Source: a virus
Taxonomy: Duplodnaviria > Heunggongvirae > Uroviricota > Caudoviricetes
Length of the DNA stretch: 54,213 nt
Reading direction: 5' to 3' (one strand)
IMG/VR virus record: IMGVR_UViG_2721755676_000004
Shown here: positions 27,303 to 52,682 of the stretch, piece after piece
Position numbering within the stretch: the stretch's first letter is position 1
Layout: each line of letters opens with the position of its first letter
Notes under the pieces: model-generated
The model's input: only the letters and a program-made list of their open reading frames with translations
Told to the model about the DNA's origin: nothing
Databases searched by the model: none
Made by a program: the position numbers and the translations under genes

Positions 27303-27339
27303 TGAATAAAACGCACCCCAGCAGCCAGTGCTACTGGGG
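27303..27339 (-). terminator. Terminator candidate downstream of trkG
   Basis: CCCCAG...CTGGGG hairpin followed by a T-rich tract on the minus strand. Confidence 0.35.
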
Positions 27340-27425
27340 ACGGAGGGGTTGCTGGTAAAGTTAGGTATTGGATCAATGAGTGAGTCAACATAATATTAAA
27401 CTCACAATTATAAATCAGCCATATA

Positions 27426-28901
27426 TTAGGAGCGCCAAAAAAAACCTGAAAACAATATAATAACAGGATAAATTTCAAGGCGACCAAGAATCATAGCTAT
27501 GCACATTAAACATTTTGCAATGTCATTAAGCACTCCGAATGACGATGCAGTAGCCCCAAAACCTAATCCCATATTATTAATACATGCAGCCACTGTTGCA
27601 AATGATGTAAGAAAATCATATCCCATACCATTTAACACCAGTATAAAAAACACCGTGAAGAGAGTATAAAGAAAAAAGAAACTCCATACAGACCTCATTA
27701 CACGATCTGTAACTATCTTCCCTCCTACATTTACACTCAACAACGCTCTGGGATGAGAAAGCTGATTTATCTCGTGTTTGCTTTGTTTGAAAAGTATAAG
27801 AAATCGAAGTGACTTAATTCCACCACAAGTTGAACCTATACATCCCCCAAAGAAACTTGACAACAGCAAAAACACTATCGTGTGCGTGGGCCAACTTGCA
27901 TAATCCTGCGTAGCTAAACCATTATCAGTGAGCATGGAGCTGGCAAGAAAAAACGAATGAATAAAACTTCCATGCAAGTCATACATACCTATATGCCAGA
28001 CCTGGAAAGAGGTAACAATGATCACCCCTAAGGCTATTAACAGAAAGAAACGAAGTTCAATATCTCTGATTAAAGGTTTTATCGTTTTCCTGCTAATAAC
28101 AATATACCAAAGAGTGAAGTTGAAAGCCGATAGCAGGGAAAAAGAACCAGCCACCAGCTCAACCAAATAGTTATTAAAATATCCGATACTCTCGCTATGA
28201 GTTGAGAAACCACCAAGCGAAACTGTGGAAATCCCGTGACAAATAGCATCAAACAAAGGCATTCCTGCAAGTCTATAACAGACAATACAAGCAATACCTA
28301 ATAAAGAATAAGTTATCCACAGTGTCCGTGACGTATCGGCCAGGCGGGGAGTGAGTTTGTCATCCTTAAATGGCCCCGGCATTTCTGACTGATAAAGCTT
28401 TGCACCACCAATACCCAATAATGGCAATACAGCAACCGCCAGAACAATAACTCCTAAACCACCTATAAAATTTAACTGTGACCGATAGTACAAATATGCC
28501 CGAGGTAATGAACTAACATCATCAATTACAGTTGCTCCTGTTGTTGTTATTCCAGAAACCCCTTCAAACAGAGCATCAATGAACGTTAAATTAAGTTCTG
28601 AGTCAATCCATAAAGGGAATGCACTAATAACAGAAAACAAAATCCAAAACATTACAATTATAATAAACCCATCACGGGTACGTAATTGAATGCCAGATTT
28701 CTTAGTTGTATACCACGCTCCGCCACCAATGCAAAAAAATATAACGAAAGTTATAAAGAAAACGAACAGGCTTTTTTCTTTATAAAACAATGCTACAACC
28801 ATTGGTGGCAACATTGAAAGACTATAGAGCCAAACCAGGAACCCACACATATGAGTAACAACTCTTACATGAGATGTATTCATATCTAAATATTCTTTCA
28901 A
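27426..28901 (-). CDS. trkG: Trk-system potassium uptake protein (TrkH/TrkG family)
   Basis: 491 aa polytopic membrane protein with repeated GG-containing pore-loop motifs; visibly AT-rich relative to flanks. Confidence 0.85.
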   Translation of the reverse strand: MKEYLDMNTSHVRVVTHMCGFLVWLYSLSMLPPMVVALFYKEKSLFVFFITFVIFFCIGGGAWYTTKKSGIQLRTRDGFIIIVMFWILFSVISAFPLWIDSELNLTFIDALFEGVSGITTTGATVIDDVSSLPRAYLYYRSQLNFIGGLGVIVLAVAVLPLLGIGGAKLYQSEMPGPFKDDKLTPRLADTSRTLWITYSLLGIACIVCYRLAGMPLFDAICHGISTVSLGGFSTHSESIGYFNNYLVELVAGSFSLLSAFNFTLWYIVISRKTIKPLIRDIELRFFLLIALGVIIVTSFQVWHIGMYDLHGSFIHSFFLASSMLTDNGLATQDYASWPTHTIVFLLLSSFFGGCIGSTCGGIKSLRFLILFKQSKHEINQLSHPRALLSVNVGGKIVTDRVMRSVWSFFFLYTLFTVFFILVLNGMGYDFLTSFATVAACINNMGLGFGATASSFGVLNDIAKCLMCIAMILGRLEIYPVIILFSGFFWRS

Positions 28902-29711: not shown

Positions 29712-29802
29712 TAGACTGGCCCCCTGAATCTCCAGACAACCAGTATCACTTATTTAAGTGATAGTCTTAATACTAGTTTTTAGACTAGTCATTGGAGAGC
29801 AG

Positions 29803-30168
29803 ATGATTGATGTCTTAGGACCGGAGAAACGCAGACGGCGTACCACACAGGAAAAGATCGCAATTGTTCAGCAGAGCTTTGAACCGGGGATGACGGTCTC
29901 CCTCGTTGCCCGGCAACATGGTGTAGCAGCCAGCCAGTTATTTCTCTGGCGTAAGCAATACCAGGAAGGAAGTCTTACTGCTGTCGCCGCCGGAGAACAG
30001 GTTGTTCCTGCCTCTGAACTTGCTGCCGCCATGAAGCAGATTAAAGAACTCCAGCGCCTGCTCGGCAAGAAAACGATGGAAAATGAACTCCTCAAAGAAG
30101 CCGTTGAATATGGACGGGCAAAAAAGTGGATAGCGCACGCGCCCTTATTGCCCGGGGATGGGGAGTAA
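29803..30168 (+). CDS. insC: IS2 transposase OrfA (InsC)
   Basis: 121 aa from [13 protein letters not shown]; HTH; A AAA AAG slippery site at 30120..30126 near its end. Confidence 0.85.
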
Positions 30169-31031
30169 GCTTAGTCAGCCGTTGTCTCCGGGTGTCGCGT
30201 GCGCAGTTGCACGTCATTCTCAGACGAACCGATGACTGGATGGATGGCCGCCGCAGTCGTCACACTGATGATACGGATGTGCTTCTCCGTATACACCATG
30301 TTATCGGAGAGCTGCCCACGTATGGTTATCGTCGGGTATGGGCGCTGCTTCGCAGACAGGCAGAACTTGATGGTATGCCTGCGATCAATGCCAAACGTGT
30401 TTACCGGATCATGCGCCAGAATGCGCTGTTGCTTGAGCGAAAACCTGCTGTACCGCCATCGAAACGGGCACATACAGGCAGAGTGGCTGTGAAAGAAAGT
30501 AATCAGCGATGGTGCTCTGACGGGTTCGAGTTCCGCTGTGATAACGGAGAAAAACTGCGAGTCACGTTCGCGCTGGACTGCTGTGACCGTGAGGCACTGC
30601 ACTGGGCGGTCACTACGGGCGGCTTCAACAGTGAAACAGTACAGGACGTCATGCTGGGAGCGGTGGAACGCCGCTTCGGCAACGAGCTTCCGGCGTCTCC
30701 AGTAGAGTGGCTGACGGATAATGGTTCATGCTACCGGGCTAATGAAACACGGCAGTTTGCCCGGATGTTGGGGCTTGAACCGAAGAGCACGGCGGTGCGG
30801 AGTCCGGAGAGTAACGGCATAGCAGAGAGCTTCGTGAAAACGATAAAGCGTGACTACATCAGTGTCATGCCCAAACCAGACGGGTTAACGGCAGCAAAGA
30901 ACCTTGCAGAGGCGTTCGAGCATTATAACGAATGGCATCCGCATAGTGCACTGGGTTATCGCTCGCCACGGGAATATCTACGGCAGCAAGCCAGTAATGG
31001 GTTAAGTGATAACAGGTGTCTGGAAATATAG
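30126..31031 (+). CDS. insD: IS2 transposase OrfB (InsD), DDE catalytic domain
   Basis: 301 aa in the -1 frame relative to insC; rve/DDE-type integrase core. Confidence 0.85.
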
Positions 31032-31042
31032 GGGCAAATCCA

Positions 31043-31315
31043 TTTGATGTACGGGTTAATTTGTCTGGCGACCGTGGCAAGGTCTTTATTCAAGAGTGTT
31101 TTGCATTCTGCTTTGGTATACGTTTTACCGAGCATGATGTCTTTTCCTGTATGCCCGTGACATACAGTCCATACACCAACAATATCTTTGTATGGTATGT
31201 AGCTGACACCTTCCAGACCATCGTTACCACTTGGGCCAGTGATTAACACTGATGCTATAGCAATTGCTCCGCCACCAATAGCAGCAGCAACGACTTTTCG
31301 TAATGATGGAGGCAT
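31043..31315 (-). pseudogene. SAR endolysin, N-terminal fragment (IS2-disrupted)
   Basis: [27 protein letters not shown]... signal-anchor-release domain as in phage 21 R; frame continues into IS2 right end after INPYIK. Confidence 0.85.
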
Positions 31316-32177: not shown

Positions 32178-32327
32178 TTCTTGCTCCTCAATCCATTAAA
32201 ATCTCAGCAATAGTAGTTGTTACGTCCGCCACTGGCTCAGAGCTGACTATCCGCTAAATTTAGCTCAGTGCCGTAGCTGTGTCAGAACAAACCTAAGCCG
32301 AAACCGTTTATTACAAAACAATAAATA

Positions 32328-32756: not shown

Positions 32757-33344
32757 TTTTCCTCACATATGTCATATAGTAAAGGATTATATATACCGTT
32801 GTTTTGGACGCTCAAACAGCGAATCAGATCAAATAAAACGCACATTTGTTAACATTTACACAAAGTCTGCGTGGGATATTCTGAAAGAATATCCATAATG
32901 TGGATAGAATCTATTGAAGTGCATGGTGCCGGGTGCCTCCCGGTGAACAAAATGTTCGTGATACCTGTCGGCGACAGAAAAGGTTAATGGTATCACCCCA
33001 CCGCACAGGGGGATTCACCATGCAGGAGTTTTCTTAGCAAACTCACTGCGCGCCCGGCAACTCCCAACCACATAAAATGCGGAGTTTGTGGTATTTATGC
33101 ATATAACTCGCAGGAATTATCTTAAAAAACTGATGTCGATCCGGATTAAAAAGAAGCAGGTCATCATCAGATGACTGGAAAAAAGGAAAACAAAAAATAC
33201 TCATCATACAGTTTTGATTGCAGGGATGAGCCTGCTATGCACAATATGCAGAATATAAGCAAGATAAAAATATGCAGGCATATTATTTCGGATTTTGTTA
33301 TTAACACAACCTTTTTAATAATCATTTGGCATACAATAAACCAG

Positions 33345-33722: not shown

Positions 33723-33800
33723 GATGTCCATGTCTGCAATCCGCCTCGCGATACAGCTTTGCGAAGCATAGCAAAATTGAAGCAGTTTATACGTAAGAAA

Positions 33801-34343
33801 TCAAGCCATTTTCTCAGCAAATGATTCACGCATGGGAATATATAGGGCATACTCAGCAACAGCTAACCAATTAGCAATCCGTTTTTCGCATGTGCTAAAA
33901 CACCACTCTGGGTGTGCATCATTTAGCAATTCAGCCATTTTGCGCTTAGTCATCCCCCGCCCTTCATAGCGTTGCCGGAGAATGCAAATCAATCCTGGAT
34001 GCTCTGCCAGCACCTCACTTATGACTCGATCAATACATAACGCCTCTGCATCAGTACAATGCGCCAGCCAGCTCTTTTGCTTGCCGTTGATCATCTCTCG
34101 CAAAAACGCTTCCAGCTCAGCTTTCTCTATTCCCGCTTTTTTCATTCTGCGCAGGGCTTCATTAATGGCTGTTTTCGTCAGTTTTTTGGATGCCAACAAC
34201 TGATTGAACATATTCCCTGACCTGCCACCGCCAATATACGACCAGCGCCCCCACATACGTAGTTTTCCCTGAATCCAGACACTTTCCAGCGTGGTGAGGC
34301 GAAGGTGTTCTCCGCTTTTTCCTGTATTCGTTGGGTAAATCAT
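33801..34343 (-). CDS. Putative late-gene antiterminator (Q-like by position)
   Basis: 180-aa basic protein immediately upstream of terminator/promoter-like spacer and lysis genes; family not confirmed; start may be internal. Confidence 0.4.
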   Translation of the reverse strand: MIYPTNTGKSGEHLRLTTLESVWIQGKLRMWGRWSYIGGGRSGNMFNQLLASKKLTKTAINEALRRMKKAGIEKAELEAFLREMINGKQKSWLAHCTDAEALCIDRVISEVLAEHPGLICILRQRYEGRGMTKRKMAELLNDAHPEWCFSTCEKRIANWLAVAEYALYIPMRESFAEKMA

Positions 34344-34630
34344 AAATGACCTTTCTTTCTCCAGATTTCTTGTGTGCGAAAAACCCCTTCAGCATGCATC
34401 AGGCGCAATTCTTCTTTGGTGTAATCGCTGGTTTTTACCCGCCCGTCGATTAGATCGTGGCATGAGCTACAGGCTATCGCCGCCTGCATATCGTGTGGTT
34501 TTGTCGCTGTTCCGCACGTCCCCGCCAGCCTGTAATGCGCCAGCACAGAGGTTTCGGGATTGTGATTGCAGTAGCCAGGGATTCTGATCTGGCACATCTG
34601 GCCTTTAGCCGCTTTACGTAAATTCACCAT
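34340..34630 (-). CDS. Cys-rich nin-region protein (YbcO/DUF1364-like)
   Basis: 96 aa; conserved Cys/His pattern (CQIRIPGYCNHNPETSVLAHYR...CSSCHD) resembling DLP12 YbcO. Confidence 0.55.
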   Translation of the reverse strand: MVNLRKAAKGQMCQIRIPGYCNHNPETSVLAHYRLAGTCGTATKPHDMQAAIACSSCHDLIDGRVKTSDYTKEELRLMHAEGVFRTQEIWRKKGHL

Positions 34631-35229
34631 TACGCAAACTCCAGTAGTTGTGCGGCCACATTTTCAACTTCCTCCTGAGAGGAGAATTTACGGAACAGAA
34701 TCCAGTTCCACAGCACATTCAGTACAGATTTATAAACCTGCTGAAACTCGACTTCGTCCATATTCGCAAAAGCGATGGATTTTGCCCGACGCCCACGGCT
34801 ACCGTCCGGATAAATATGCTCGGTGTAAAATCCGGCCTGAATGGTTACCCACTCGCGGAAAGCCTCAAACGACTTTAGCAACGCCGTATCCCGGGTTCTA
34901 CGAGTCGCAACGGTGTTAAGGTATTGCTCTGCGGCATCACTCAGGGCTGGCGTGTGTTCCCGACCAACTGATTCGCACAGGTAATCAACGAAACCAGACA
35001 GCAGTTCTCGTTCGCGAGGCGTGATCGCCCCACCGACCGGAGTCCAGTAATCGAATCCCAGTTGCAGGAGTTTGAAAAAACGCTTGTGGAATGCGTAGTT
35101 ACGCACACGCTTAAAGTCTGCGTGTATCCACTCACCTATTTTGATTTGATGCAGAAAATCGCAACTCTCCGGCGTCGCCGGGAGAAGTAAACCAGAAGAA
35201 GTTTGTTTGACCAGTTGTATATGCGCCAT
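34630..35229 (-). CDS. Hypothetical nin-region protein (possibly DUF1367-like)
   Basis: 199 aa; translationally coupled to the downstream gene; family assignment tentative. Confidence 0.45.
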   Translation of the reverse strand: MAHIQLVKQTSSGLLLPATPESCDFLHQIKIGEWIHADFKRVRNYAFHKRFFKLLQLGFDYWTPVGGAITPRERELLSGFVDYLCESVGREHTPALSDAAEQYLNTVATRRTRDTALLKSFEAFREWVTIQAGFYTEHIYPDGSRGRRAKSIAFANMDEVEFQQVYKSVLNVLWNWILFRKFSSQEEVENVAAQLLEFA

Positions 35230-35509
35230 TTCTCAATCTCTCGATGGCGCAGCGCAGCAGATGCCAGTTGTTCAGGCTGACGAATAAAGTATAAATAAAC
35301 TGGCTATGGTGTAAAGCCCCACATAGCATGAACAAACACTACATATCAAATAGCTGGTACAAGGATAGAAATACGACATTTATTATTAAAAACGATTAGA
35401 TAAATTACATTTTAATGTTATGCAAAAGTTCTTTTTTATCATAACATTTCAATAAAAGCATTACAGATGCAATCATCCCGTCATCATCAATTATTTAAGG
35501 TGGTTAAAC

Positions 35510-35596
35510 ATGGAAAATAACAAGTTCGCACATCTCGCTCCTTTTTTATCCGTAATCCTTTTCGCTTGTTGTTTTATATGGGCATTATTTTTATAA
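35510..35596 (+). CDS. Small hydrophobic peptide (28 aa), candidate small membrane protein
   Basis: ATG preceded by AAGGTGG at optimal spacing; MENNKFAHLAPFLSVILFACCFIWALFL; lies in a very AT-rich spacer. Confidence 0.3.
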   Translation: MENNKFAHLAPFLSVILFACCFIWALFL

Positions 35597-36042
35597 AGTA
35601 GCCACATGATAAGTTGCTGGAATCATATTTCCCACTCAAGTCATTAACATTTGATAAGATATATCTAAAAGGACGCCTTTACATTATTTATGTGTATATA
35701 ATTTATTTATATACACAGTAAAGGTATCCTGGGAAAATACTTATCGTTAAAAAATACATCATAAATAATCAAGCTGAAATTTCAGAACACAACTAATACA
35801 CACAATAAGGTTCAGTAACAATAATCTATGTGGACTACATCGAGATTTTTTGATTAAACTTTAATAACTTATTCCTAACACACAGAATGCATAAACTAAA
35901 AGTAAAACAAATAGTTATACGAAAAACAACCATATTTATTATATCTTCTCCTCTAATCAACATATCAATTATGTGTTTCATAACAGCTTGACATAACCCT
36001 CAAAAACACGCATTTATAATGCATGTTTTTGAGGAGGTGGTT

Positions 36043-36381
36043 ATGACACACAAGAGAATTCCTAAAGATTGGGTAATCAAACGCTCAACTCCGTTCTTCA
36101 CAAAAGAGAACGTACCTTCAGCGTTATTAACACATCATAATACAGCAGCAGGTGTTTTTGGGCAGTTGTGCGTAATGGAAGGCACTGTAACATATTATGG
36201 TTTTACTGATGAGAATGCTACTGAACCGGAGATAAAAGTAGTCATTAATGCTGGCGCTTTTGCAACAAGCCCACCACAATACTGGCACCGTGTTGAACTA
36301 AGCGATGATGCTCAGTTTAATATTAACTTTTGGGTCGCTCCAGACTTCTCGGGCGAAAAAGTCTATAGCACCAAAAAATAG
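36043..36381 (+). CDS. YeaR-like DUF1971 protein
   Basis: GAGGAGG SD before ATG at 36043; RSTPFF...VMEGTVTYYGFTDE...AGAFATSPPQYWH...FNINFWVAP resembles E. coli YeaR. Confidence 0.7.
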   Translation: MTHKRIPKDWVIKRSTPFFTKENVPSALLTHHNTAAGVFGQLCVMEGTVTYYGFTDENATEPEIKVVINAGAFATSPPQYWHRVELSDDAQFNINFWVAPDFSGEKVYSTKK

Positions 36382-37104
36382 ATGATCATATTAAAAATGC
36401 TTTAACAGTCAGACCCGGCAGGGCTATCCCCGACGGGTCTCATTTTTGTAAATATATTGGTTCTACATTGACAGGAGACTTCAACCATAAGAAGTAATCT
36501 GAATACTTGAGCAATAAATTTACTTAAGATTAATGAGCGCACCTTGCCGGACAAAGATAAACCAAGGTAACACCTTTTTTCTAGCCAGTATGTAATCAAT
36601 CAGAAAGCCGCTCCATAAGAACAACAGCAAGACAATAAATTGCCATTACAGCCGCAATAGCTAGCGCACATTTGAGAACCAGCACGACAACCTCCTGTAT
36701 TGGACGTACACCAGTTCTGATAAATATGAGGCTGTCTCATCATTGATTCAATATAACTATTGGGTATAGTTTCTGTGATTTTGTTCTGTAGAAATGGAAC
36801 ACAACAACCAGTCACCACCAGCACTTCTTTAAATACGCCAAGTCCGACGCAAGCTAACCTTCTAGTCCGCTTTGAGCGAGGAGCGGACCAAACCCGGCCA
36901 ACTGACTCTTAAAGGGGCCGCAGGAATTTTTCGTCTGAACTTTCGAAGCTCCTCTCCCTGAAGACAGAAAACTTCTGTGTGCTGTGGGAATATTGAATCT
37001 TTGCCTTAGATATAAATAATTTTATCCCGCCTGAAGTTTACATTATTTTATTTATCTGTTTTTCTAAATCAGACTGCACTCCTTACTTAAATCAGGAGCC
37101 AGTC

Positions 37105-38304
37105 ATGCCATTTGTTATTTATGTGTTTACTATCAGTGCCTTTGCGCTCGGACTCGCGGAATTTGTCCCCATTGGGCTGACAGACGTTATGGCTCAGGGG
37201 TTGTGTGTGGGTGTGGAGCAGACCGGGGCAGCGGTTACAACCTATGCACTGGGGGCAACGTTCGCGGCACCCGTACTGTCTGCGCTGACAGCAAGCTGGA
37301 GCCGGAAAAATGTAATGCTTACAACTGCCGTTGTGTTTACTGCCGGTAGTCTGGCGGCCGCGTTTGCAGCCACATTACCTCAGCTCCTGTTAGCGCGGTT
37401 CATTGCTGGTCTGGGACACGGCCTGTTTCTGGCTGCGGCATCCAGTACCGCAGCTCGTCTTGCTGGACCGGGTAAAGCAGGCAGAGCGGTGGCTGTGGTA
37501 TTTGGTGGCTTTACTCTGGCGATGGCAATCGGCGTACCGCTGAGTACATGGTTGGGGGGGGTGGTCTCATGGCGTCCAGTTCTCGGCGCTATTGCCGCTT
37601 TTGGCGCGTTCGGATTCCTTGGACTGTTGTTCGGTATGAAAGATCCCGTACGCAGCGTGCCCGGTGAACATAGTGACTCAGCAATGCAGAATATCGGCAT
37701 GCTGTTTAACCGTAAGTTGCTGGCCGGCGCGCTGGTTACGGTGCTGGCGTATGCAGGCTCGTTTACGGCTTACACCTTTATCGCACCTATTCTGACGCAG
37801 GTGACAGGGGTTACCGGAGCAACGGTGAGTCTGTTTATGCTGGTTTACGGTATTACAGCTGCGGTAGGTAATATTCTTGGTGGGAAACTTACCGACAGCA
37901 TGGGGGTTAATCGTGCCAATATACTCATCATTAGCGGCATTGTTGTTGTCGTGCTTGGTATGTGGCTGCTGTCATCCTCACCGGTGAGCATGGGCATTCT
38001 GGTTGCGCTGCTGGGTATGGTGACATTTGCCGCAGTGCCGGCACTGCAGGCCCGTCTGATTGGTGTCGCTGAGCAACATGCTCCTCATGCGCATGGTGTT
38101 GCTGCCGGCCTGAATATTGCGGGCTTCAACTCAGGTATAGCGCTGGGATCAGTACTGGGCAGCATTACTATAAGCCACGCCGGTATCGTGTATACCGGTA
38201 TCAGCGGTGCGATTGTTTCTCTGCTCGGCCTGCTGTTGCTGCTTGCACAAATCCGTCGCAGCCACAGTCGTAAATTTCAACAGGTTAAAATCGTAGGCCA
38301 GTAA
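37105..38304 (+). CDS. MFS transporter (12 TM)
   Basis: 399-aa polytopic hydrophobic protein with MFS-like loop motifs. Confidence 0.85.
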   Translation: MPFVIYVFTISAFALGLAEFVPIGLTDVMAQGLCVGVEQTGAAVTTYALGATFAAPVLSALTASWSRKNVMLTTAVVFTAGSLAAAFAATLPQLLLARFIAGLGHGLFLAAASSTAARLAGPGKAGRAVAVVFGGFTLAMAIGVPLSTWLGGVVSWRPVLGAIAAFGAFGFLGLLFGMKDPVRSVPGEHSDSAMQNIGMLFNRKLLAGALVTVLAYAGSFTAYTFIAPILTQVTGVTGATVSLFMLVYGITAAVGNILGGKLTDSMGVNRANILIISGIVVVVLGMWLLSSSPVSMGILVALLGMVTFAAVPALQARLIGVAEQHAPHAHGVAAGLNIAGFNSGIALGSVLGSITISHAGIVYTGISGAIVSLLGLLLLLAQIRRSHSRKFQQVKIVGQ

Positions 38305-38315
38305 AGGGAGGTTAT

Positions 38316-39008
38316 ATGCTTACCCGTGAAAATATGCTTAATGGCACATTTGTCAGGGTGCATGAAGCGCTGCTCCCGGCGAATATGCTCTGGGACGCTG
38401 AAAAAATACGCGCATCAATGAACTCTACTCTGGAGGAGCGCCCGACGGGTGCTCCTGTCTGGATATTTGCCTACGGGTCATTGATGTGGAATCCCGTGCT
38501 GGCGATTGAAGAAATGCAACGGGCCCGTCTGAAAGGATGGCAGCGCAGTTTCTGCATTCGTTTGATATCCGGACGAGCGACTCCTGATGTCCCCGGCAGG
38601 ATGTTATCGCTCGACGAAGGTGGAATTACCGAAGGTATTGCGTTCAGACTGCCGGAATCGACTCTTATTAATGAGCTGGAAATTGTCTGGACGCGCGAGA
38701 TGATAACCGGTCTTTACCGTCCGGTCTGGGCAGACGTTTCGCTAGGAAACGGTGAGGAAATTCAGGCGCTGGCTTTCGTATCAGACAGACTGCATCCGCA
38801 TTATGAACAGGACAATCTTACAGCGACCGTAGCGTTGAGCATCGCATCTGCCCGTGGAGACATTGGCACGAATGCAGATTATGTATGGAAACTGCAGGCC
38901 ACTCTGGGTGCGTTGGGAATACGGAATGATTACGTGAGTGAACTGGCCCTTGCTCTGCATGAGGCTCCCTGTAACGATAAACTTCATCAGCGAGGCGCTT
39001 CACTATGA
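38316..39008 (+). CDS. ChaC-family gamma-glutamylcyclotransferase-like protein
   Basis: 230 aa; VWIFAYGSLMWNP motif and overall similarity to E. coli ChaC. Confidence 0.75.
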   Translation: MLTRENMLNGTFVRVHEALLPANMLWDAEKIRASMNSTLEERPTGAPVWIFAYGSLMWNPVLAIEEMQRARLKGWQRSFCIRLISGRATPDVPGRMLSLDEGGITEGIAFRLPESTLINELEIVWTREMITGLYRPVWADVSLGNGEEIQALAFVSDRLHPHYEQDNLTATVALSIASARGDIGTNADYVWKLQATLGALGIRNDYVSELALALHEAPCNDKLHQRGASL

Positions 39009-39886
39009 GCCATCTGAGCCATCTGCGAACGTTTCTTGAGGCCTATCGCTCTGGCTCCTTTTCAAAGGCGGCAGAACTACTGGGCATCACTCAGCCCGCG
39101 GCGTCACAGCATATCCAGTCTCTTGAGACTCTGGTTGGTAAGCGTCTGTTTATCAGGCAGGCCAGAGGCGTGACGGCAACCGAAGCTGCGGATGAGCTTG
39201 CCCGCTCAGTTTCACCCTTCATTGATGGTCTGGAAGAAAAGCTGTCCTCTTTCCGGTCAGGCTCTGTACGCGGGGGAACAATTAATCTGGCAGGACCGCC
39301 AGATTTTATTCATTCCCGGCTTGGGACAGTAATGGCTCCACTAATGAAGGAGGGGTATCGCCTACGCTTTCATACCGGCAATAAGCAACGTATTTATTCC
39401 CTTTTGCATGACGGGAGCGCCGATCTCGCTGTTACCGCATCTATGCCTGATGACCGTCTGTACGGCTATGCACATCTACTGACTGAACGCATGCTCCTTG
39501 TTCATGCTCCCGCCATGTCAGAGATCATCGGATCAGAACCTGGTGCTGAAACGCTTGCCTCATTACCGCTGATTGCTTATGACGAAGAGTTGCCACTGAT
39601 TAGAGCGCTCTGGGCCTCCATGTTTCAGAGAGCCCCTGAGATGCAGGCTACATTCACCATTCCGGATTTACGTATTATCCGCGACTTGGTCTGTGACGGC
39701 CACGGGTGGACAGTGCTGCCGGATTATCACTGTGACAATGACCTGAAAAGTGGTCGCCTGATTTCAGTGACACCTGCAGACCTCGCTCCGACTAATCATC
39801 TTTATCTGGTCTGGAACAAAAGGACGGCTAATAACAGCCGAACCGCCTATGTTCGGGATTACATTCTTAAAACGTTTCCGCGTTGA
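39005..39886 (+). CDS. LysR-family transcriptional regulator
   Basis: 293 aa; N-terminal HTH (FSKAAELLGITQPAASQHIQSLE) plus LysR substrate-binding domain; overlaps ChaC-like stop. Confidence 0.85.
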   Translation: MSHLSHLRTFLEAYRSGSFSKAAELLGITQPAASQHIQSLETLVGKRLFIRQARGVTATEAADELARSVSPFIDGLEEKLSSFRSGSVRGGTINLAGPPDFIHSRLGTVMAPLMKEGYRLRFHTGNKQRIYSLLHDGSADLAVTASMPDDRLYGYAHLLTERMLLVHAPAMSEIIGSEPGAETLASLPLIAYDEELPLIRALWASMFQRAPEMQATFTIPDLRIIRDLVCDGHGWTVLPDYHCDNDLKSGRLISVTPADLAPTNHLYLVWNKRTANNSRTAYVRDYILKTFPR

Positions 39887-39932
39887 TGTTTGAAACGGAT
39901 GATTGGCGATGCGTATCATAAGTTACGTATGT

Positions 39933-39960
39933 CCGCTTCTGGCACAAAGCAGACGCCCAC
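39933..39960. repeat. 28-bp repeat copy A (TTGGCACAAAGCNGAC..CCAC core)
   Basis: Near-identical to 43606..43633, direct orientation. Confidence 0.5.
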
Positions 39961-40016
39961 TCTCACGCGAATGCTTTGCCCTTGACTTGCCAACAACCGT
40001 ATCGCTTGCTCCGCAA

Positions 40017-41309
40017 CTATGGTTTTTTATTAGAATCTTCGCCACTAAATAAATTATAATAAATTGATTTTATTAGATATCTATCAGAATCTATATGGTC
40101 AGCACGAGTAGCATGCTCTAATGTTTCAAATGCTAGGGTTTGTGCGGCTTCAGCAAAAATTCCAGGCCAACCCTTACTCAGCATCGACAGTCCTTTAAGT
40201 ACCCTTATCTGAATTTCCCTCATACTGGCACCATCGCGCGCAACAGGTGAGAAAAAGTCTTCAAGTAGATCGTTATTCTGAAGTGGTGCAACATGTACAG
40301 AAGGATATTTCACTTCTATTTCATCAGATTTATTCTGCGCGTAAGCGGAAAGTATACGTACACCTCTGCCAATGACATCAATGGCGGTTCCAGGATCGTT
40401 CACTGCGGGGGAAAGGGCTCGGCAGGCTATTTCGGCCATGACGCTAAGACAAAATCGGGGGTCCTGAGCAAATGAACGTACATCCGAGACAATAATCGTC
40501 TCAAGTAAATCGGTGCTGATTGATGACTCCTGGCCCTGACTCAGGTACAAAACTGGCGTGGACGGATGTATGAAACTGCCCGGCTGCGCCACGAGGTATA
40601 CATGACGGGGATCATTGGTCAGCAGCTTGCTGAGTTTCACCATATCAACATATTCAACATAGCCAATCTTTTTCGGATAAACTGCAACCGTTCCTTTCGG
40701 CTGTTCATTGTTCTCAAGCCATGGATATCCGCCGAGACAGGGATTTCTTGCTCTCGCAATAAATGTTTCGATGGCCGCCTGTTCTACTTTTGCCGTTGTC
40801 TCACCAACCCTCCCCAGAGAGGTCAAATGCTGTATCCAGCGAAGCAATGTGATGAGGATTAAGGCAATGACAACCAGTGTTACAATGAATAAAATGACTC
40901 TCCCCCTTTCTCCATAAGCTCCCATATTGAGGGCAATAATCCCTACCAGACTGAAGAGAAAAGAACCGATGAAGGTGGCCAGTACATTTTGTGTGGTGAC
41001 GTCTTCAACAACTAAACGAGTAGCTCTGGGAGTCACATTAGTAGTGGCTGAACCGTAGGCTGTGACCATGATGCTCAGCGAAAATGTGGTCACGGCCAGC
41101 ATACTCGATGCCAGTATGTTCAGAATGTTATCGACTGCTTCCGCACCAACCTTCACGGAAACCGACTCAGGTATCATTGATTTAAAAAGAATTGATAAAA
41201 GGGCCGTTATTATTGCGACAATTGCGAATAACGTTGCCCTGAACCATAGTTTTTTAAATGTCTGCTTCAGCATCCATTTCCAGCGTGAAATCATTCTGCA
41301 TTCTCTCAT
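40017..41309 (-). CDS. Integral membrane protein with C-terminal soluble domain
   Basis: 430 aa; several N-terminal TM helices; start may be internal. Confidence 0.6.
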   Translation of the reverse strand: MRECRMISRWKWMLKQTFKKLWFRATLFAIVAIITALLSILFKSMIPESVSVKVGAEAVDNILNILASSMLAVTTFSLSIMVTAYGSATTNVTPRATRLVVEDVTTQNVLATFIGSFLFSLVGIIALNMGAYGERGRVILFIVTLVVIALILITLLRWIQHLTSLGRVGETTAKVEQAAIETFIARARNPCLGGYPWLENNEQPKGTVAVYPKKIGYVEYVDMVKLSKLLTNDPRHVYLVAQPGSFIHPSTPVLYLSQGQESSISTDLLETIIVSDVRSFAQDPRFCLSVMAEIACRALSPAVNDPGTAIDVIGRGVRILSAYAQNKSDEIEVKYPSVHVAPLQNNDLLEDFFSPVARDGASMREIQIRVLKGLSMLSKGWPGIFAEAAQTLAFETLEHATRADHIDSDRYLIKSIYYNLFSGEDSNKKP

Positions 41310-41357
41310 ATTGCAGCCGGGATAAATAAATGCCGCCTCTGTGGCGGCATGTTGCTG

Positions 41358-43361
41358 TTAACGAACCAGATGCAGGAAGTGCAGGTGTTTTTCGTACTGG
41401 TCCAGTATGTCATTAATCAGCTGTTCCTGATTCCAGCCCATTACATCATAATTTTGGCCGCCCTCTTTGAGATAGACTTCAGCGCGATAATATCGATGTT
41501 GTTCACTCTGCTGCTCATCATTATCCAGCGCAGCGAGCGCGAAGGTCGGTGAGTTATACCCGCGAAGCCTCACTTCATATATATAATTCAGCTCGTTGCC
41601 CAAATCGACTTCAAGGCGAATACGATCCTCGGCGGCGTCACTGATGTGGCTTATCGTTCCCTGCTTGTTAAGTTCCTCCTGAACCAGCGTCATGGCGGGT
41701 TGGATAATGTCGTCCATAAAACGTTTCACAAGAGAGCGCTTCGGCAAATACGCGATATTGCGTAACCTTCTCTGCCAGGGAATTGGGTTACGTGCAGCCG
41801 TAGGAGCAATAGTCGCCATGCTAAGGCTTTCACGCTTGGTCAAATCCCGACGCAGGGCTTTTAACAGTCCGTATATGGATATTAATAAGATAACTGAGAA
41901 GGGCAATGCACTCGCTATCGTTACGGTTTGCAACGCACTCAGCCCCCCTGCGATCAGCAGGGCAATAGCAACAACGCCCATGAGCGATGCCCAGAAAATT
42001 CGCTGCCAGACGGGCGTGTTTGCCACCCCACCTGATGCCAGAGTATCCACAACCATTGCCCCCGAATCAGCAGACGTTACAAAGAAGACGATGACCATCG
42101 CCATTGCAATGAATGACAGCACGGAAGAGAACGGGAAATGCTCCAGGAAATTAAACAGGGCAAGCGCAACATCCTGCTGAACGGTATTGGCGAGGTCAGT
42201 GGCGCCCTGGTTCATGATGAGATAGATGGCGCTGTTTCCAAACACCGTCATCCACATGAGCGTAAAGCCGGCGGGAACAAACAACACGCCAGTCACGAAC
42301 TCACGAATTGTCCTGCCGCGGGAAACGCGTGCAATGAACATACCTACAAACGGCGACCATGAAAGCCACCATCCCCAGTATAATAATGTCCAGCCCCCCA
42401 GCCAGTTGCTCGACTTGGGTTCATACGCGTAAAGGTTGAACGTTTTACTCACCAGTTCCGACAGATAACCACCCGTATTTTCCACAAATGACTTCAGCAG
42501 AAGCACAGTGGGACCCAGGCACAAGACCAGCGCCAGGAGCAACACTGCCAGGCCCAGATTAAGCTCAGACAGGATGCGTATTCCCTTGTCCAGGCCGGAC
42601 ACCACCGAAATCGTCGCTAACCCCGTGATGACCACGATCAAAATGACCTGTACCGTTTCATTGATGGGCACGCCGAAAAGATGGTTCAAACCGGCATTCA
42701 CCTGCAATACACCGTAACCCAGCGATGTTGCAACGCCAAAGACAGTGCCTATCACGGCGAAGATATCAACCGCGTGGCCTATAGGCCCGTAAATGCGATC
42801 GCCGATAATGGGATAGAGCGCAGAACGCAGCGTTAAAGGCAGACCGTGACGGTAACTGAAAAAGGCCAGAATCAGCGCCACGATGGCATAAATTGCCCAT
42901 GCGTGCAGACCCCAGTGGAAGAACGTCAGGCGCATGGCTTCCTTCGCTGCCGCAACGGTCTCTGGAGTGCCGACAGGTGGCGAAAGATAATGCATCACAG
43001 GTTCGGCAACGCCAAAGAACATCAGGCCGATCCCCATCCCTGCCGAAAAAAGCATCGCGAACCAGGAGTGGTAGCTGAAATCAGGCTGCGCATGGTCTGG
43101 GCCCAGCTTTATATCACCGTAACGTGAGAGTCCAAGGAACGTGACGCTCAGTAAAATCAGGGCCACAGCAAGTATGTAGAACCAGCTGGCATTCGTGAAG
43201 ATTTGTTGCTGAAGTAGTTTAAAATTTTTGTCGGCGACATCCGGGAATACGGCGGCAAAGGCGACAAGAAGGAAAATTAGCAAAGCAGATGTAAAGAATA
43301 CCGCTTTGTTAATCTGGCTTGTAGACTTCTTTGGGGTTGTATCATTTTCACTCATAATCAT
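41358..43361 (-). CDS. BCCT-family transporter (BetT/CaiT-like)
   Basis: 667 aa; strong resemblance to E. coli BetT including WTLFYW/WWxAWSPFVG-type motifs and long cytoplasmic C-tail. Confidence 0.85.
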   Translation of the reverse strand: MIMSENDTTPKKSTSQINKAVFFTSALLIFLLVAFAAVFPDVADKNFKLLQQQIFTNASWFYILAVALILLSVTFLGLSRYGDIKLGPDHAQPDFSYHSWFAMLFSAGMGIGLMFFGVAEPVMHYLSPPVGTPETVAAAKEAMRLTFFHWGLHAWAIYAIVALILAFFSYRHGLPLTLRSALYPIIGDRIYGPIGHAVDIFAVIGTVFGVATSLGYGVLQVNAGLNHLFGVPINETVQVILIVVITGLATISVVSGLDKGIRILSELNLGLAVLLLALVLCLGPTVLLLKSFVENTGGYLSELVSKTFNLYAYEPKSSNWLGGWTLLYWGWWLSWSPFVGMFIARVSRGRTIREFVTGVLFVPAGFTLMWMTVFGNSAIYLIMNQGATDLANTVQQDVALALFNFLEHFPFSSVLSFIAMAMVIVFFVTSADSGAMVVDTLASGGVANTPVWQRIFWASLMGVVAIALLIAGGLSALQTVTIASALPFSVILLISIYGLLKALRRDLTKRESLSMATIAPTAARNPIPWQRRLRNIAYLPKRSLVKRFMDDIIQPAMTLVQEELNKQGTISHISDAAEDRIRLEVDLGNELNYIYEVRLRGYNSPTFALAALDNDEQQSEQHRYYRAEVYLKEGGQNYDVMGWNQEQLINDILDQYEKHLHFLHLVR

Positions 43362-43605
43362 TTATTCCATTAATTAAATCCGCACTGGATAGAAGGTACT
43401 ACCTCTCACAGAGTAGCAAAGTTCAACTGGCTATGCGGGGTTAATCGGAATGCATGGTGGAATGAGTGCCGATACAAATCATCCTATATTCTAAGGAGTT
43501 TTAAGTTACTCAGCCTGCCAATTACTGGGGCATTTAATTTGTATGATCTGTATCAAAGCTGGGATATAAGTTAAGTGAAGTATATTAGGCACGAATTACC
43601 AGCGT

Positions 43606-43633
43606 CTGCTCTTGGCACAAAGCGGACAACCAC
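43606..43633. repeat. 28-bp repeat copy B (TTGGCACAAAGCNGAC..CCAC core)
   Basis: Direct repeat of 39933..39960; sits upstream of the BCCT gene. Confidence 0.5.
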
Positions 43634-43695
43634 GCTAGCTCTACCCTGTGCCACAAAATGTCAATTTGCATCTGAACTAATGCACTTTAATCTCG

Positions 43696-44118
43696 TCACT
43701 TCAATAAATACCGAACATCCCCCTGATAAAACGACAATATGCGCTGCATAACTTCGCTCTTCCGGCACTCGCGACAGATTATGTTTAGGCGACTGTCGTA
43801 GCGACGTATTTCTCCGTCAGGTAATGACCAGATAAGGTCCGGATCAACCACAACCGGTTTCTTCAGCTTTGCCCTCGATAATTTTTTGCGGGCATTTTGC
43901 CAGTCTTTACGAGCCTGTTCAGACGGGAATAACCCGTAGCCAGAATTGTATACATCGCCACTGGCAACCAGCTCTCTGGCCAGAACGCTCATCAGATATC
44001 TTGTTGCCCCAGTTTTAGCTTCCAGTTGTCGTAACGTCTCGCGCCCACTCTGGCGTACGAGTTCAAGAACCTGCCCTTTAATTTTTTCCCGCTCTTCTTG
44101 TGTAAAAACTTTTGCCAC
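43696..44118 (-). CDS. Hypothetical early-region protein with C-terminal Cys cluster
   Basis: 140 aa; downstream of replication initiator; CRECR motif. Confidence 0.5.
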   Translation of the reverse strand: MAKVFTQEEREKIKGQVLELVRQSGRETLRQLEAKTGATRYLMSVLARELVASGDVYNSGYGLFPSEQARKDWQNARKKLSRAKLKKPVVVDPDLIWSLPDGEIRRYDSRLNIICRECRKSEVMQRILSFYQGDVRYLLK

Positions 44119-44158
44119 AAGCCCTCCTGAAAATTACCTCATGACCAGAAATTAACAC

Positions 44159-45235
44159 TTACCCCCTGAAGCCCGGCGGAATTTCGTTATCCGGTTCAGA
44201 AATATGATTCACACAACGCTGGTTGTTCGTGCCGCTTACCGGGAGCAACCAGGGGTTCTCAAAATTCCGGTCCGGTCCAAAAAACGTCGTCGCTCGCTGA
44301 ACAAATTCCGTTCCCGTTTTCCCGGTAGCCGCCAAGTATCTTGCGTAACGCCTCACGCCATCCAGCATGGCCTCTGGTGGCACCCCCTCGCGTAATCTGG
44401 CCTTCCAGGCACTGAAAGCGGATTTCTTCGGGTTTGCCCCAGCACGCAACGGGTACTCCCGCCAGACCTGTTCGAACACATCCGGATAATCCACTCGTCC
44501 CACAGACTGCCCGGTGTTTTCCGGGACTACCCGATCGGCTTCCCGCTGAATGGCGGAATCGGCTTCAGGCTGCTGCAGTTGGTGTGATTGCTCCGCCCTT
44601 GCGGTCATCACCTGCTGCACAGCGCCCGAATCGGCTTTCAGCGCATACGCTGAATCGGCTTCCGGTGTCGTGCCTGCTGGCTGACCAAGATTGACGGTCT
44701 GAACATCCCCTGCCTGGTTCGTGGCGTTTTTTACGCCATGGACCATAGTGTTTTGATCTTCTTGATCTGTATCTTTATCTGTATCTTTATCTGTCGTGAC
44801 TCGTCGTGACATGTGCGTGACATTTCGTGACGCGCCGTGACAATCGCCATTTTGTTCCCGCTTTCTTTCCCTCTCTCGCTGCGCCCTCTTGCGCTCTGCA
44901 GGAGATTTTGCGGTTTGCGAAATATTGCCGTTGTCCTCTTTAAGCACCTGGCGTTTTTCCCATCCAGTGATTAAATCACCATCAAGTACCCGCCCCTGCA
45001 TCGTCTGCAAAATTGAATCAATTACCTCTTCTGTCACGTCGAGCGCACTTGCCAAATCTTCTGTCGTGACATCAATGTGACCTCGCGTGACATTTCGTGA
45101 CGCGCTCACCAGGAGGTGGATATACACTGCCATCACTGTTGCAATTGGCTGTCCTGACACCCTGGCAATTGTTCGCCACTTAGGGTCATTTGGCATGTCA
45201 TGCCATAATCTGAGCCAGGCGTTAGCCATACTCAC
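44159..45235 (-). CDS. Phage replication initiation protein with internal iterons
   Basis: 358 aa; N-terminal winged-helix-like region, basic linker, C-terminal domain; contains two clusters of CGTGAC direct repeats. Confidence 0.65.
   Translation of the reverse strand: MSMANAWLRLWHDMPNDPKWRTIARVSGQPIATVMAVYIHLLVSASRNVTRGHIDVTTEDLASALDVTEEVIDSILQTMQGRVLDGDLITGWEKRQVLKEDNGNISQTAKSPAERKRAQRERERKREQNGDCHGASRNVTHMSRRVTTDKDTDKDTDQEDQNTMVHGVKNATNQAGDVQTVNLGQPAGTTPEADSAYALKADSGAVQQVMTARAEQSHQLQQPEADSAIQREADRVVPENTGQSVGRVDYPDVFEQVWREYPLRAGANPKKSAFSAWKARLREGVPPEAMLDGVRRYARYLAATGKTGTEFVQRATTFFGPDRNFENPWLLPVSGTNNQRCVNHISEPDNEIPPGFRG
44784..44831. repeat. Iteron cluster 1 (5 x CGTGAC at ~10-bp spacing), candidate ori
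   Basis: tgtCGTGACtcgtCGTGACatgtgCGTGACatttCGTGACgcgcCGTGACa; preceded by ATCTTTATCTGT tandem repeats. Confidence 0.6.
45061..45105. repeat. Iteron cluster 2 (CGTGAC repeats)
   Basis: ctgtCGTGACatcaatGTGACctcgCGTGACatttCGTGACgcg. Confidence 0.55.
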
Positions 45236-52285: not shown

Positions 52286-52480
52286 ATGAGATATGACAAT
52301 GTTAAACCATGTCCATTTTGTGGTTGTCCATCAGTAACGGTGAAAGCCATTTCAGGATATTACCGAGCGAAGTGTAACGGATGCGAATCCCGAACCGGTT
52401 ATGGTGGAAGTGAAAAAGAAGCACTCGAAAGATGGAATAAACGAACCACTGGAAATAATAATGGAGGTGTTCATGTATAA
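52286..52480 (+). CDS. ralR: RalR (Lar) restriction-alleviation / DNase toxin protein
   Basis: 64 aa from MRYDNVKPCPFCGCPSVTV; Cys4 motif. Confidence 0.7.
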   Translation: MRYDNVKPCPFCGCPSVTVKAISGYYRAKCNGCESRTGYGGSEKEALERWNKRTTGNNNGGVHV

Positions 52481-52682
52481 AATTACCGCCACTATTGAAA
52501 AGGAAGGTGGCACTCCTACTAACTGGACAAGATATTCAAAATCTAAACTAACGAAATCAGAATGCGAAAAAATGCTCTCAGGTAAAAAAGAAGCAGGCGT
52601 TTCCAGAGAGCAGAAAGTAAAACTGATAAATTTTAATTGCGAGAAACTTCAGTCCTCGAGAATTGCATTGTATTCAAATTAA
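52473..52682 (+). CDS. Small protein (69 aa), YdaC-like
   Basis: GGAGGTG SD before ATG at 52473; overlaps ralR end. Confidence 0.5.
   Translation: MYKITATIEKEGGTPTNWTRYSKSKLTKSECEKMLSGKKEAGVSREQKVKLINFNCEKLQSSRIALYSN

Follow-up and report, generated by a model that had tools for sequence, protein, structure and literature searches.

Two motif-bounded cassettes occupy an accessory slot of a Rac-type prophage

We analyzed the virus record IMGVR_UViG_2721755676_000004 (hereafter the window; 54,213 nt, to which coordinates and strands refer unless another record is named) and found that it very probably represents one Rac-type prophage, in whose accessory slot a cassette of about 1 kb has been replaced by two motif-delimited cassettes of separate source. 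Judging by its flanking genes, the slot is the ren|ninB position of lambda, running from a Ren-like DUF977 gene, which closes the replication block, to a ninB-like DUF1367 gene. Cassette 1 (36889-39930, plus strand) comprises a promoter region and the genes for a major facilitator superfamily (MFS) transporter, a ChaC-like gamma-glutamylcyclotransferase and a LysR regulator. Cassette 2 (39955-43603, minus strand) comprises a DUF2254 membrane protein gene, an inter-gene hairpin, and the gene for a BetT-like betaine/choline/carnitine transporter (BCCT) with 242 bp of upstream sequence. Family calls throughout come from Pfam, NCBIfam, PHROG and Rfam searches of the window.

The units are delimited by plus-strand copies of a 24-bp motif that occurs in two types, L and R. 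An L copy forms the left insert edge (36865-36888; GTCCGCTTTGAGCGAGGAGCGGAC), an internal R copy lies between the cassettes (39931-39954; GTCCGCTTCTGGCACAAAGCAGAC), and a further R copy forms the right insert edge (43604-43627; GTCTGCTCTTGGCACAAAGCGGAC), 68 nt downstream of the DUF977 stop codon. The island itself is ordinary prophage cargo, and the boundary motif is the part of interest, as it shows a Rac/Qin-type accessory slot filled by discrete units that end in a 24-bp repeat. If this repeat is a true recombination site, it would explain the hopping of defence and accessory genes between unrelated phages and the rapid turnover of hotspots. It would also offer a simple sequence handle for new defence cassettes, and it would link prophage hotspots to DNA that travels with the clinically important quinolone-resistance gene qnrS1.

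The insert replaces a cassette of related prophages

An earlier reading of the window, made from its letters alone (the sequence-only reading), had proposed that the junctions be defined against relatives without the island. This comparison placed the insert edges at 36889 and 43603, and the 6.7 kb between them has no counterpart in related prophages. The Rac prophage of strain ETEC1730, which lacks the island, shares 33742-36879 (95.9%) and 43604-44127 with the window, and between these flanks it carries a 984-bp cassette encoding WP_000161640.1. Phage Tritos, together with phages Evi and mEp460_ev081, shares 36581-36888 and everything rightwards from 43604 (96%). Homology to ETEC1730 stops at 36879, while homology to both Tritos and ETEC1730 restarts exactly at 43604. 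On these alignments, the 6.7-kb insert is the replacement of a cassette of about 1 kb and not a simple insertion.

The sequence left of the insert is likewise shared. Positions 33742-36382, which hold the nin genes, an AT-rich spacer (35230-36018, no strand assigned) and a DUF1971 gene (36019-36381, plus strand), are common to phages vB_EcoS-666R9, 673R7 and 613R10 (94%); the spacer and DUF1971 part (35230-36382) shows 94.5% identity to the same phages. The DUF1971 protein (WP_000149055.1; YeaR/TehB-N-like; Pfam 2.6e-26, PHROG 34268 2e-78) is identical in ETEC1730, and its gene is also present in phage 666R9. A backbone segment at 36581-36888 (no strand assigned), with the left motif at its end, is 94.5% identical to Tritos, where its counterpart (record L002, 4998-5305) adjoins hokD. 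Because they are shared with relatives that lack the island, the spacer, the DUF1971 gene and 36383-36888, 1.65 kb together, are, by this comparison, backbone or an older moron outside the insert. The sequence-only reading had described 35230-43700 as a stretch without phage-like genes; this holds for 36889-43603 but not for the spacer and the DUF1971 gene, which are common to phages. Its AT-rich spacer of about 0.8 kb is as described (GC about 0.34, no open reading frame (ORF) longer than 50 aa), and the GC profile stays at 0.34-0.35 across 35001-36500. The GC profile, which it had also proposed as a check, did not separate the island (0.45-0.54) from the phage backbone (0.40-0.55).

The island genes are not conserved phage core at this position, as relatives with the same flanks hold different fillings. 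In Tritos the filling is an FRG-domain gene. In E. coli prophages with the same flanks, the fillings include type I cyclic-oligonucleotide-based antiphage signalling systems (CBASS), AbiH, DNA methyltransferases, SMEK/AIPR/DUF5677 genes and a small integrase. In the phage collection, neither MFS-ChaC-LysR nor DUF2254-BCCT had a match at the megablast level. The whole island is found in 281-296 of 5,426 complete E. coli genomes (about 5%). In CAVP776 (record L224, 6248-20787) it lies in a Rac remnant that is trimmed by the insertion sequence (IS) IS1 on both sides and has lost its late genes to IS1 deletion, with the early region and the island kept. This arrangement fits cargo retention after phage decay.

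Within the backbone segment 36581-36888 we also observed a very hydrophobic ORF of 29 aa (MLVLKCALAIAAVMAIYCLAVVLMERLSD; 36596-36685, minus strand), with a GGAGG site upstream. Phages Tritos and Evi have it with 94% conservation, at a distance of about 200 bp upstream of hokD, and searches of NCBIfam and Rfam gave no match. The ORF could encode a small membrane toxin or be what is left of a hok-type locus.

The flanks belong to a single prophage

The window is 99.96% identical to, and collinear with, the Rac-type prophage of E. coli 2017.15.01CC, save for three IS differences. The order in that strain is ttcA | intR xisR rcbA ralR recT recE racC kilR sieB, repressor/cro, ydaT, replication genes and the island, followed by nin/Q, lysis genes, trkG, terminase, head, tail, tail fibres and pinR ydfK ynaM | uspF. 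The 26-bp Rac attachment (att) core, AAGAAAGAACAATACAACCTGAACAA, is present in one copy at the ttcA end and one at the uspF end, and the ttcA att site is the K-12 Rac site. The sole integrase of the window is the Rac IntR, at the prophage end. Neither a second integrase nor a second att pair was found inside the prophage.

These features agree with the sequence-only reading, which took the island for cargo within one coherent lambdoid prophage: there is one integrase and one att pair, and the phage gene order is continuous across the island. The alternative that it had named, in which two prophages (or, as we add, one prophage and a remnant) enclose chromosomal host DNA, can draw on the bacterial type of the genes and on the homologue of cassette 1 in an Enterobacter chromosome. 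It is nevertheless excluded for practical purposes, because a single att pair at ttcA/uspF encloses the lambda-like order and no other integrase lies inside. Moreover, the complete phage genomes Tritos and 666R9 have both flanks adjacent with other fillings, and no such genes are present at the E. coli K-12 chromosome locus.

The two cassettes have separate sources

Cassette 1 has a close relative in a bacterial chromosome. In Enterobacter sp. BIGb0383, a chromosomal segment with 87% nt identity to positions 36992-39889 holds the trio in the same order and with the same ChaC/LysR overlap, among ordinary metabolic genes. The homology extends from 113 bp upstream of the MFS gene to 3 nt past the LysR stop codon. 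In a large protein search, the BIGb0383 ChaC-like protein matched with 89% identity; a GTDB species-representative search with the ChaC-like protein gave a best match of 61% aa identity (Serratia, Erwinia), without MFS/LysR synteny. On this evidence, cassette 1 is a self-contained operon copied from an Enterobacter-like chromosome. As a separate observation, the BIGb0383 chromosome (record L223) carries degenerate sites in the arrangement L...R-17 nt-L (11667-11690, 12477-12500 and 12518-12541) around a GNAT gene, which lies about 2 kb from the MFS-ChaC-LysR trio. A cassette system may also exist in this chromosome near the donor locus.

Cassette 2 is shared with plasmids. Positions 39929-43628 are 99.7-99.8% identical to IncY and IncF plasmids of E. 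coli, Klebsiella and Enterobacter, and the plasmid copy adjoins relB...ISKpn19-qnrS1. About 1,557 records (about 1,500 genomes) have a 94%-identical copy in a chromosomal island; the E24377A copy lies in an IS-rich island near lpxM/virK/capU. In strain 2022CK-00450, a non-phage island carries the unit, which ends exactly at the equivalents of 39929 and 43627 and neighbours an ABC-three-component defence system and a recombinase trio. Horizontal acquisition, as proposed by the sequence-only reading, is supported by the non-phage sources of both cassettes (an Enterobacter chromosome and plasmids).

A 24-bp dyad brackets cassettes in unrelated mobile elements

The boundary motif is a 24-bp dyad, GTCYGCTyy-6 nt-rrAGCRGAC, with 9-nt arms and a centre that reads TGGCAC in R and GAGCGA in L. 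Exactly three copies occur in the 54-kb window, all at module junctions, where shuffled sequences gave an expectation of 0.00-0.01. The bases outside L and R of the insert are unrelated (CTTCTA versus AACCAC). An L...R pair also encloses the cassettes that ETEC1730, Tritos and other prophages have instead. In the Qin prophage of K-12 MG1655, flxA is bracketed by R and L motifs (genome positions 1645981-1646004 and 1646972-1646995; record L220, 13982-14005 and 14973-14996). In phage P2 (AF063097), fun(Z) lies between an R copy (15335-15358) and an L copy (17432-17455). The tin/old region of P2 itself showed no motif, and lambda (J02459) has no motif site at ren|ninB.

We scanned viral contigs with a pattern that comprised the 14 core bases only, the outer 8 bases lying outside it. 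This gave 126 sites, 53 of them with the full 24-mer; two 'GCTGGTGG' variants are probably chance matches to the search pattern. Near the R-selected sites there were 61 L sites, compared with about 1 expected by chance. The order L then R was seen 52 times, with the sites 0.4-7.4 kb apart, and the order R then L 10 times, at 14-27 nt with a mode of 18. R followed by R was seen six times, five of which are the 3,649-bp DUF2254-BCCT unit.

Altogether, the viral contigs contained 38 distinct motif-bounded cassettes. Their cargo includes type I CBASS (a cyclase with a 4TM or 2TM effector), AbiH, PDC-S35, PDC-S39, Lamassu-like and patatin genes. Other cargo consists of GNAT, glyoxalase, deaminase, HAD plus NUDIX, MFS, and LysR plus flavin reductase genes. 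Among their locations are the P2 G|FI (Z/fun) locus, the P2 gpA|terminase hotspot and a P4-type int-primase region. In a search that needed about 20 of 24 matches, 2,096 of the 5,426 E. coli genomes had at least one site (median 1, maximum 6). Given this low copy number per genome and the link to mobile elements, the motif is, by its distribution, a low-copy repeat associated with mobile elements and not of the repetitive extragenic palindromic (REP) type.

The motif also forms an array on plasmid pPO125 (NZ_MW077912.1; record L004, 2249-9699), with the structure L-X-R | int | L-Y-R-(DUF2254-BCCT)-R; the same array occurs in record L006. Its four motif-bounded units adjoin ISKpn19-qnrS1, in IncY/IncF plasmids, and the array ends in a relB flank. 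Because this relB flank is also found in prophage contigs and in K-12 Qin, the widespread resistance-plasmid segment beside qnrS1 looks prophage-derived.

We considered several other roles for the motif and rejected them. An RNA or DNA hairpin or terminator as its main role does not agree with the lack of covariation, the lack of a T-run and the presence of cargo on either strand. Arm covariation was 0.070 compared with 0.075 in shuffles, 337 of 500 shuffles being as high, and neither the motif nor the island of the window had an Rfam match at gathering or E-value level. In the absence of compensatory arm changes, the dyad looks like protein half-sites rather than a hairpin. Direct comparison showed no resemblance to the Rac att core. 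A transposon inverted repeat was rejected, as there is no transposase in 35230-43700 and no target-site duplication; on the same grounds, the island is not an insertion sequence or composite transposon. To our knowledge, the motif does not resemble Chi, the sigma-54 promoter, boxA/nut, Xer dif or the invertase sites hix/gix.

Three further observations concern single copies of the motif. A fourth, degenerate copy in the window (GTCCGCCACTGGCTCAGAGCTGAC; 32224-32247) has a TolA-C-terminal-like ORF on either side; it falls in the moron region between Q and the lysis genes, which in Stx phages houses stx. The R copy in Qin lies inside the annotated ORF ydfV, and because the motif falls within it, ydfV may not be a real gene. 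Lambda carries a single L-like motif (27322-27345, 3 mismatches) at the right end of b2, about 400 bp from attP, for which no partner R site was found.

Exchange points map to the centre of the motif

We compared breakpoints among 88 R sites, each with 300-bp flanks on both sides. Where only the right flanks were homologous (n = 394 pairs), homology started at nt 1 after the motif in 354. Where only the left flanks were homologous (n = 18), it ended 0-1 nt before the motif in 16. The arms of the motif followed the same pattern. In pairs homologous in the right flank only (n = 359), the right arm was identical in 94% and the left arm in 4%; in those homologous in the left flank only (n = 16), the values were 31% and 50%, respectively, and in the background of pairs with neither flank homologous they were 28% and 5%. 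Since the arms segregate with their flanks, exchanges are placed by this comparison in the central part of the 24-mer. A hybrid of the R' left arm and the R right arm, GTCCGCTTC TGGCAC AAAGCGGAC, is the commonest R variant elsewhere.

In the mechanism that we propose, both cassettes would have entered by recombination at the motif. Cassette 1 would have entered as an L...R unit, and cassette 2 would have integrated at an R site as a circle, leaving direct R repeats. We infer the circle from the direct R repeats that flank cassette 2.

Several points weigh against the reading of the slot given above. Many viral motif loci are near-duplicate E. coli prophages, so that pair counts overstate the number of independent events, and the R sites were ascertained with a fixed core pattern. 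Recombination within the 11-bp core looks alike whether it is site-specific or driven by microhomology. The route of entry is inferred from scars alone, and the recombinase, if any, is not encoded in the window. The BIGb0383 trio is not directly flanked by motifs. Finally, promoter and terminator scans of the window show no enrichment over shuffles.

The breakpoints also bear on whether a dedicated enzyme is needed. The motif may instead be a short conserved linker, at which cassettes are swapped between co-resident phages by homologous or microhomology recombination (RecET/Red, RecA); we regard this as possible, if on balance doubtful. Rac itself encodes RecET, the slot adjoins ninB/Orf, and most arrays lack a recombinase. 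A core of about 11 bp is identical in all sites, so that any crossover between two of them has to fall within it. On the other hand, 24 bp is marginal for efficient homologous exchange, and the motif is the only sequence common to otherwise unrelated lambdoid, P2-like, P4-like, plasmid and non-phage-island elements. A linker also does not predict separate L and R ends on each cassette, joined as R-18 nt-L, nor does it predict the association with a recombinase described below.

A candidate recombinase is associated with the motif

The int gene of the pPO125 array encodes a tyrosine recombinase of 200 aa that consists of the catalytic domain only (Pfam Phage_integrase, 1e-17). It resembles Xer and FimB/E-type enzymes weakly, with scores below threshold, and stays far below the cut-offs of integron/Xer models. 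The spacing on the plasmid is R, 18 nt, int, 39 nt, L, so that int occupies an R|L junction.

With the Int protein alone as the query, we retrieved 67 loci from viral contigs. Motif sites were present at 22 of the 24 close homologues (at least 82% identity), on both sides of the gene wherever the locus was long enough. These sites are all antisense to the gene, several with L at -39 nt and/or R at +20 nt. Altogether, 63 sites were counted in 318 kb, where about 0.5 would be expected. Among more distant homologues (56-64% identity), most have no motif. The int gene is present in 864 of the 5,426 E. coli genomes and was not found in the window. The association between recombinase and motif is suggestive, and int could be a frequent passenger gene.

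These data bring in a second explanation, which concerns the entry step only: the motif would be the site of a dedicated recombination system, in which a small Xer/FimB-like tyrosine recombinase acts in trans, and the window would hold a recombinase-less array comparable to the clusters of attC sites lacking integron-integrases (CALINs) of integrons. We consider this a serious candidate, though somewhat short of an even chance. The 9-6-9 layout of the dyad is that of tyrosine-recombinase core sites, and the missing compensatory arm changes suggest a protein-binding site and not a hairpin. Exchange points fall in the motif centre, and cassette 2 is surrounded by direct R repeats with no L. In addition, the plasmid array has int exactly at its R|L junction, the prophage motifs lie at -39 and/or +20 nt, and motif sites accompany 22 of 24 close homologues. 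Set against this, most arrays, including that of the window, lack the recombinase, which could be a common passenger; L and R differ in their central 6 bp; and the more distant homologues are mostly without motif.

It is conceivable, and we put this forward tentatively, that the L/R motif is the site of an unrecognised or unexploited cassette-exchange system of enterobacterial mobile elements, served by the 200-aa Xer/FimB-like recombinase found in R|L junctions. If true, such a system would shuttle self-contained cassettes (CBASS, AbiH, Lamassu-like, fun(Z), flxA and transport or metabolic operons) between lambdoid phages, P2-like phages, P4-like satellites, plasmids (also beside qnrS1) and chromosomal islands.

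Genes of the island and its flanks

The six genes listed by the sequence-only reading were all recovered at their positions and on their strands by ORF listing and family searches, and the flanks are as it described, with a replication block on one side and nin/Q-like genes on the other. The left flank comprises a Q-like antiterminator (33801-34343; PHROG 753), YbcO (34340-34630, leftward of DUF1367; Pfam YbcO 5e-45) and the ninB-like DUF1367 gene (34630-35229, minus strand; Pfam DUF1367 6.4e-98, PHROG 319 NinB/Orf). The right flank comprises the Ren-like DUF977 gene (43696-44118, minus strand; Pfam DUF977, PHROG 142 Ren-like), a replication initiator and a CII-like gene. Early rightward phage transcription runs on the minus strand, and the plus-strand MFS, ChaC-like and LysR genes oppose it, as had been noted before.

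The MFS transporter (37105-38304, plus strand; Pfam MFS_1 2.9e-42) is closest to Cmx/AraJ-type exporters, with all NCBIfam scores below cut-offs. Its gene follows the promoter region of cassette 1 (36992-37104, plus strand), which contains a consensus promoter match at 36993-37020 (9/12). The ChaC-like protein (38316-39008, plus strand; Pfam ChaC 2.4e-34) scores 119 bits on PF04752 against a cut-off of 21; its best solved relative is human ChaC2, and it has no NCBIfam equivalog match. The LysR regulator (39005-39886, plus strand), whose gene has an ATGA overlap with the ChaC-like gene, combines an N-terminal HTH_1 domain with a LysR_substrate substrate-binding domain, both above threshold, and has no equivalog-level NCBIfam match. 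Together, the three proteins may form a small unit of gamma-glutamyl/glutathione-related turnover and efflux under LysR control. Compared with the glutathione-specific ChaC, the cassette 1 gene is a paralogue and not the host's own gene, and its operon partners encode an exporter-type MFS protein and a LysR regulator.

In cassette 2, the DUF2254 membrane protein (40017-41309, minus strand; Pfam 1.6e-92) has no solved relative by sequence. A hairpin (41330-41350) separates its gene from that of the BetT-like BCCT transporter (41358-43361, minus strand; Pfam BCCT 7e-199). The transporter scores 752 bits on the NCBIfam BetT subfamily model NF007399 (cut-off 695) and is 42% identical to K-12 BetT end to end, over 672 aligned positions that include the long C-terminal tail/domain. 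In comparison with the choline:H+ symporter BetT of E. coli, it is again a paralogue and not the host's own protein, and its partner is DUF2254 rather than betIBA. It would be expected to import choline or a related quaternary amine into the host bet pathway. The stress/osmoprotectant label that the sequence-only reading gave to the cassette thus seems reasonable for the BetT-like gene only and is a guess for the rest.

Both cassettes are predicted to be expressed in the lysogen from their own promoters, cassette 1 from its native upstream region and cassette 2 from its 242 bp, and their genes would serve the host rather than the phage. In a terminator scan of the minus strand, not enriched over shuffles, no terminator-like site was found between DUF977 and BCCT, and because nothing of this kind separates the two genes, PR read-through into BCCT during induction is possible.

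The replication module is intact beside the island

The 358-aa replication initiator (44159-45235, minus strand) belongs to PHROG 3729, 'replication initiation protein'. Over residues 124-358 it matches a DnaD-like helicase loader (phrog_1701, 8.5e-63), and its C-terminus gives a weak DnaT-like match. The sequence-only reading had seen no DnaC-like gene and suggested that the insertion may have removed replication functions. The observation is correct in that the initiator and the island have no DnaC/P-like ORF between them, but the loader domain is fused to the initiator.

The suggested loss can be compared with relatives. The complete Tritos genome contains the same initiator and DUF977 pair (96% nt identity) without the island and without DnaC, and the pair occurs without the island in many viral contigs. 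The right junction, 68 nt past the DUF977 stop codon, is at the same motif position in island-less relatives. In CAVP776, the identical island lies beside the other module type, DUF977-DUF1627-YdaV. YdaV, named after the K-12 Rac gene ydaV, has the RefSeq product 'ATP-binding protein', and we take it to be DnaC-like. As the island occurs beside both module types, island and replication-module type are independent. Deletion of a DnaC-like loader by the insertion, leaving a replication-defective prophage, is therefore most improbable, even though the missing DnaC/P-like ORF and damage elsewhere in the prophage, an IS2 in the endolysin gene, could be taken to favour it.

Relation to known cassette systems

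The island shares several features with integrons: tandem cassettes that are promoter-poor or self-contained, short site-like repeats, the frequency of recombinase-less arrays and a tyrosine recombinase at some of them. It differs in that the window has no IntI and the sites are 24-bp dyads instead of 57-141-bp attC sites (RYYYAAC/GTTRRRY). Also unlike integrons, every cassette has two ends (L and R), cargo occurs on either strand, and cassettes reach about 4.7 kb with several genes. We rejected the island as an integron, since IntI/attI, attC sites and a uniform cassette orientation are all lacking. The pdif modules of Acinetobacter plasmids are bounded by XerC/D sites, which are short Xer-type dyads, and carry varied cargo in many plasmid contexts. 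The cassettes resemble them in being discrete units with short dyad sites and varied cargo, and the candidate recombinase is weakly Xer-like. In contrast to pdif modules, their hosts are E. coli phages, satellites and plasmids, and the recombinase is a 200-aa protein with only the catalytic domain, not the chromosomal XerC/D. We know of no resemblance between the motif and the dif/pdif consensus, cer or psi.

Among lambdoid morons (Rac trkG, Qin relBE-hokD, flxA), the island is typical in that non-phage genes lie between conserved modules, vary between phages and are oriented independently of phage operons. The parallel with Qin is close, as K-12 flxA lies in the homologous slot within the same motif brackets, with relBE-hokD and flxA at the equivalent place. 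Unlike usual morons, the island is 6.7 kb long, consists of two independently sourced units and has a 24-bp repeat at its edges, not only a promoter/terminator pair. The cargo of relatives is mostly defensive, whereas that of the island consists of metabolic and transport genes. The motif may have a precedent in P2-like phages in work by Nilsson et al. from 2004, which, going by its title, reportedly deals with the variable loci Z/fun and tin/old of these phages.

The variable loci of P2-like phages and P4 (Z/fun, tin/old; hotspots in PMC9122126) are likewise fixed slots with interchangeable cassettes, many of them anti-phage; the slot described here belongs instead to a lambdoid phage and sits at ren|ninB. 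Rousset et al. 2022 (PMC9122126) left the recombination pathway at P2/P4 hotspots open and suggested a role for cos ends. In the searchable open literature, we found neither the motif sequence nor anything specific on boundary sequences or cassettes at hotspots. Lambdoid motif-bounded cassettes, their sharing with P2, P4, plasmids and islands, and a link to a recombinase were also not found there, and no open-literature paper joined 'Rac prophage' with BCCT. Ramisetty & Sudhakari 2019 (PMC6379469) listed chaC and a LysR regulator in the 'Qin' prophage of strain CRE1540. The NCBI Prokaryotic Genome Annotation Pipeline (PGAP) already annotates all island genes.

Other features of the prophage

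Outside the slot, an IS2 of 1,331 bp (29712-31043; TnpA 29758-30168, TnpB 30126-31031) lies inside the endolysin gene rrrD. It is not present in the otherwise identical prophage of 2017.15.01CC. Because the element interrupts rrrD, this copy of the prophage is probably lysis-defective.

The potassium-transporter gene trkG (27425-28882, minus strand), a known Rac cargo gene, follows the lysis genes in a GC patch of 0.37-0.42. It is the second transporter moron of this prophage and is also present in phage vB_EcoS-666R9. Rfam searches gave three gathering-level matches: the RalA antitoxin small RNA (sRNA) of the ralR/ralA type I toxin-antitoxin system of Rac (52479-52657), the STnc100 sRNA between Q and the lysis region (32865-33053), and the IS009 RNA near the tail-fibre end (1273-1471).

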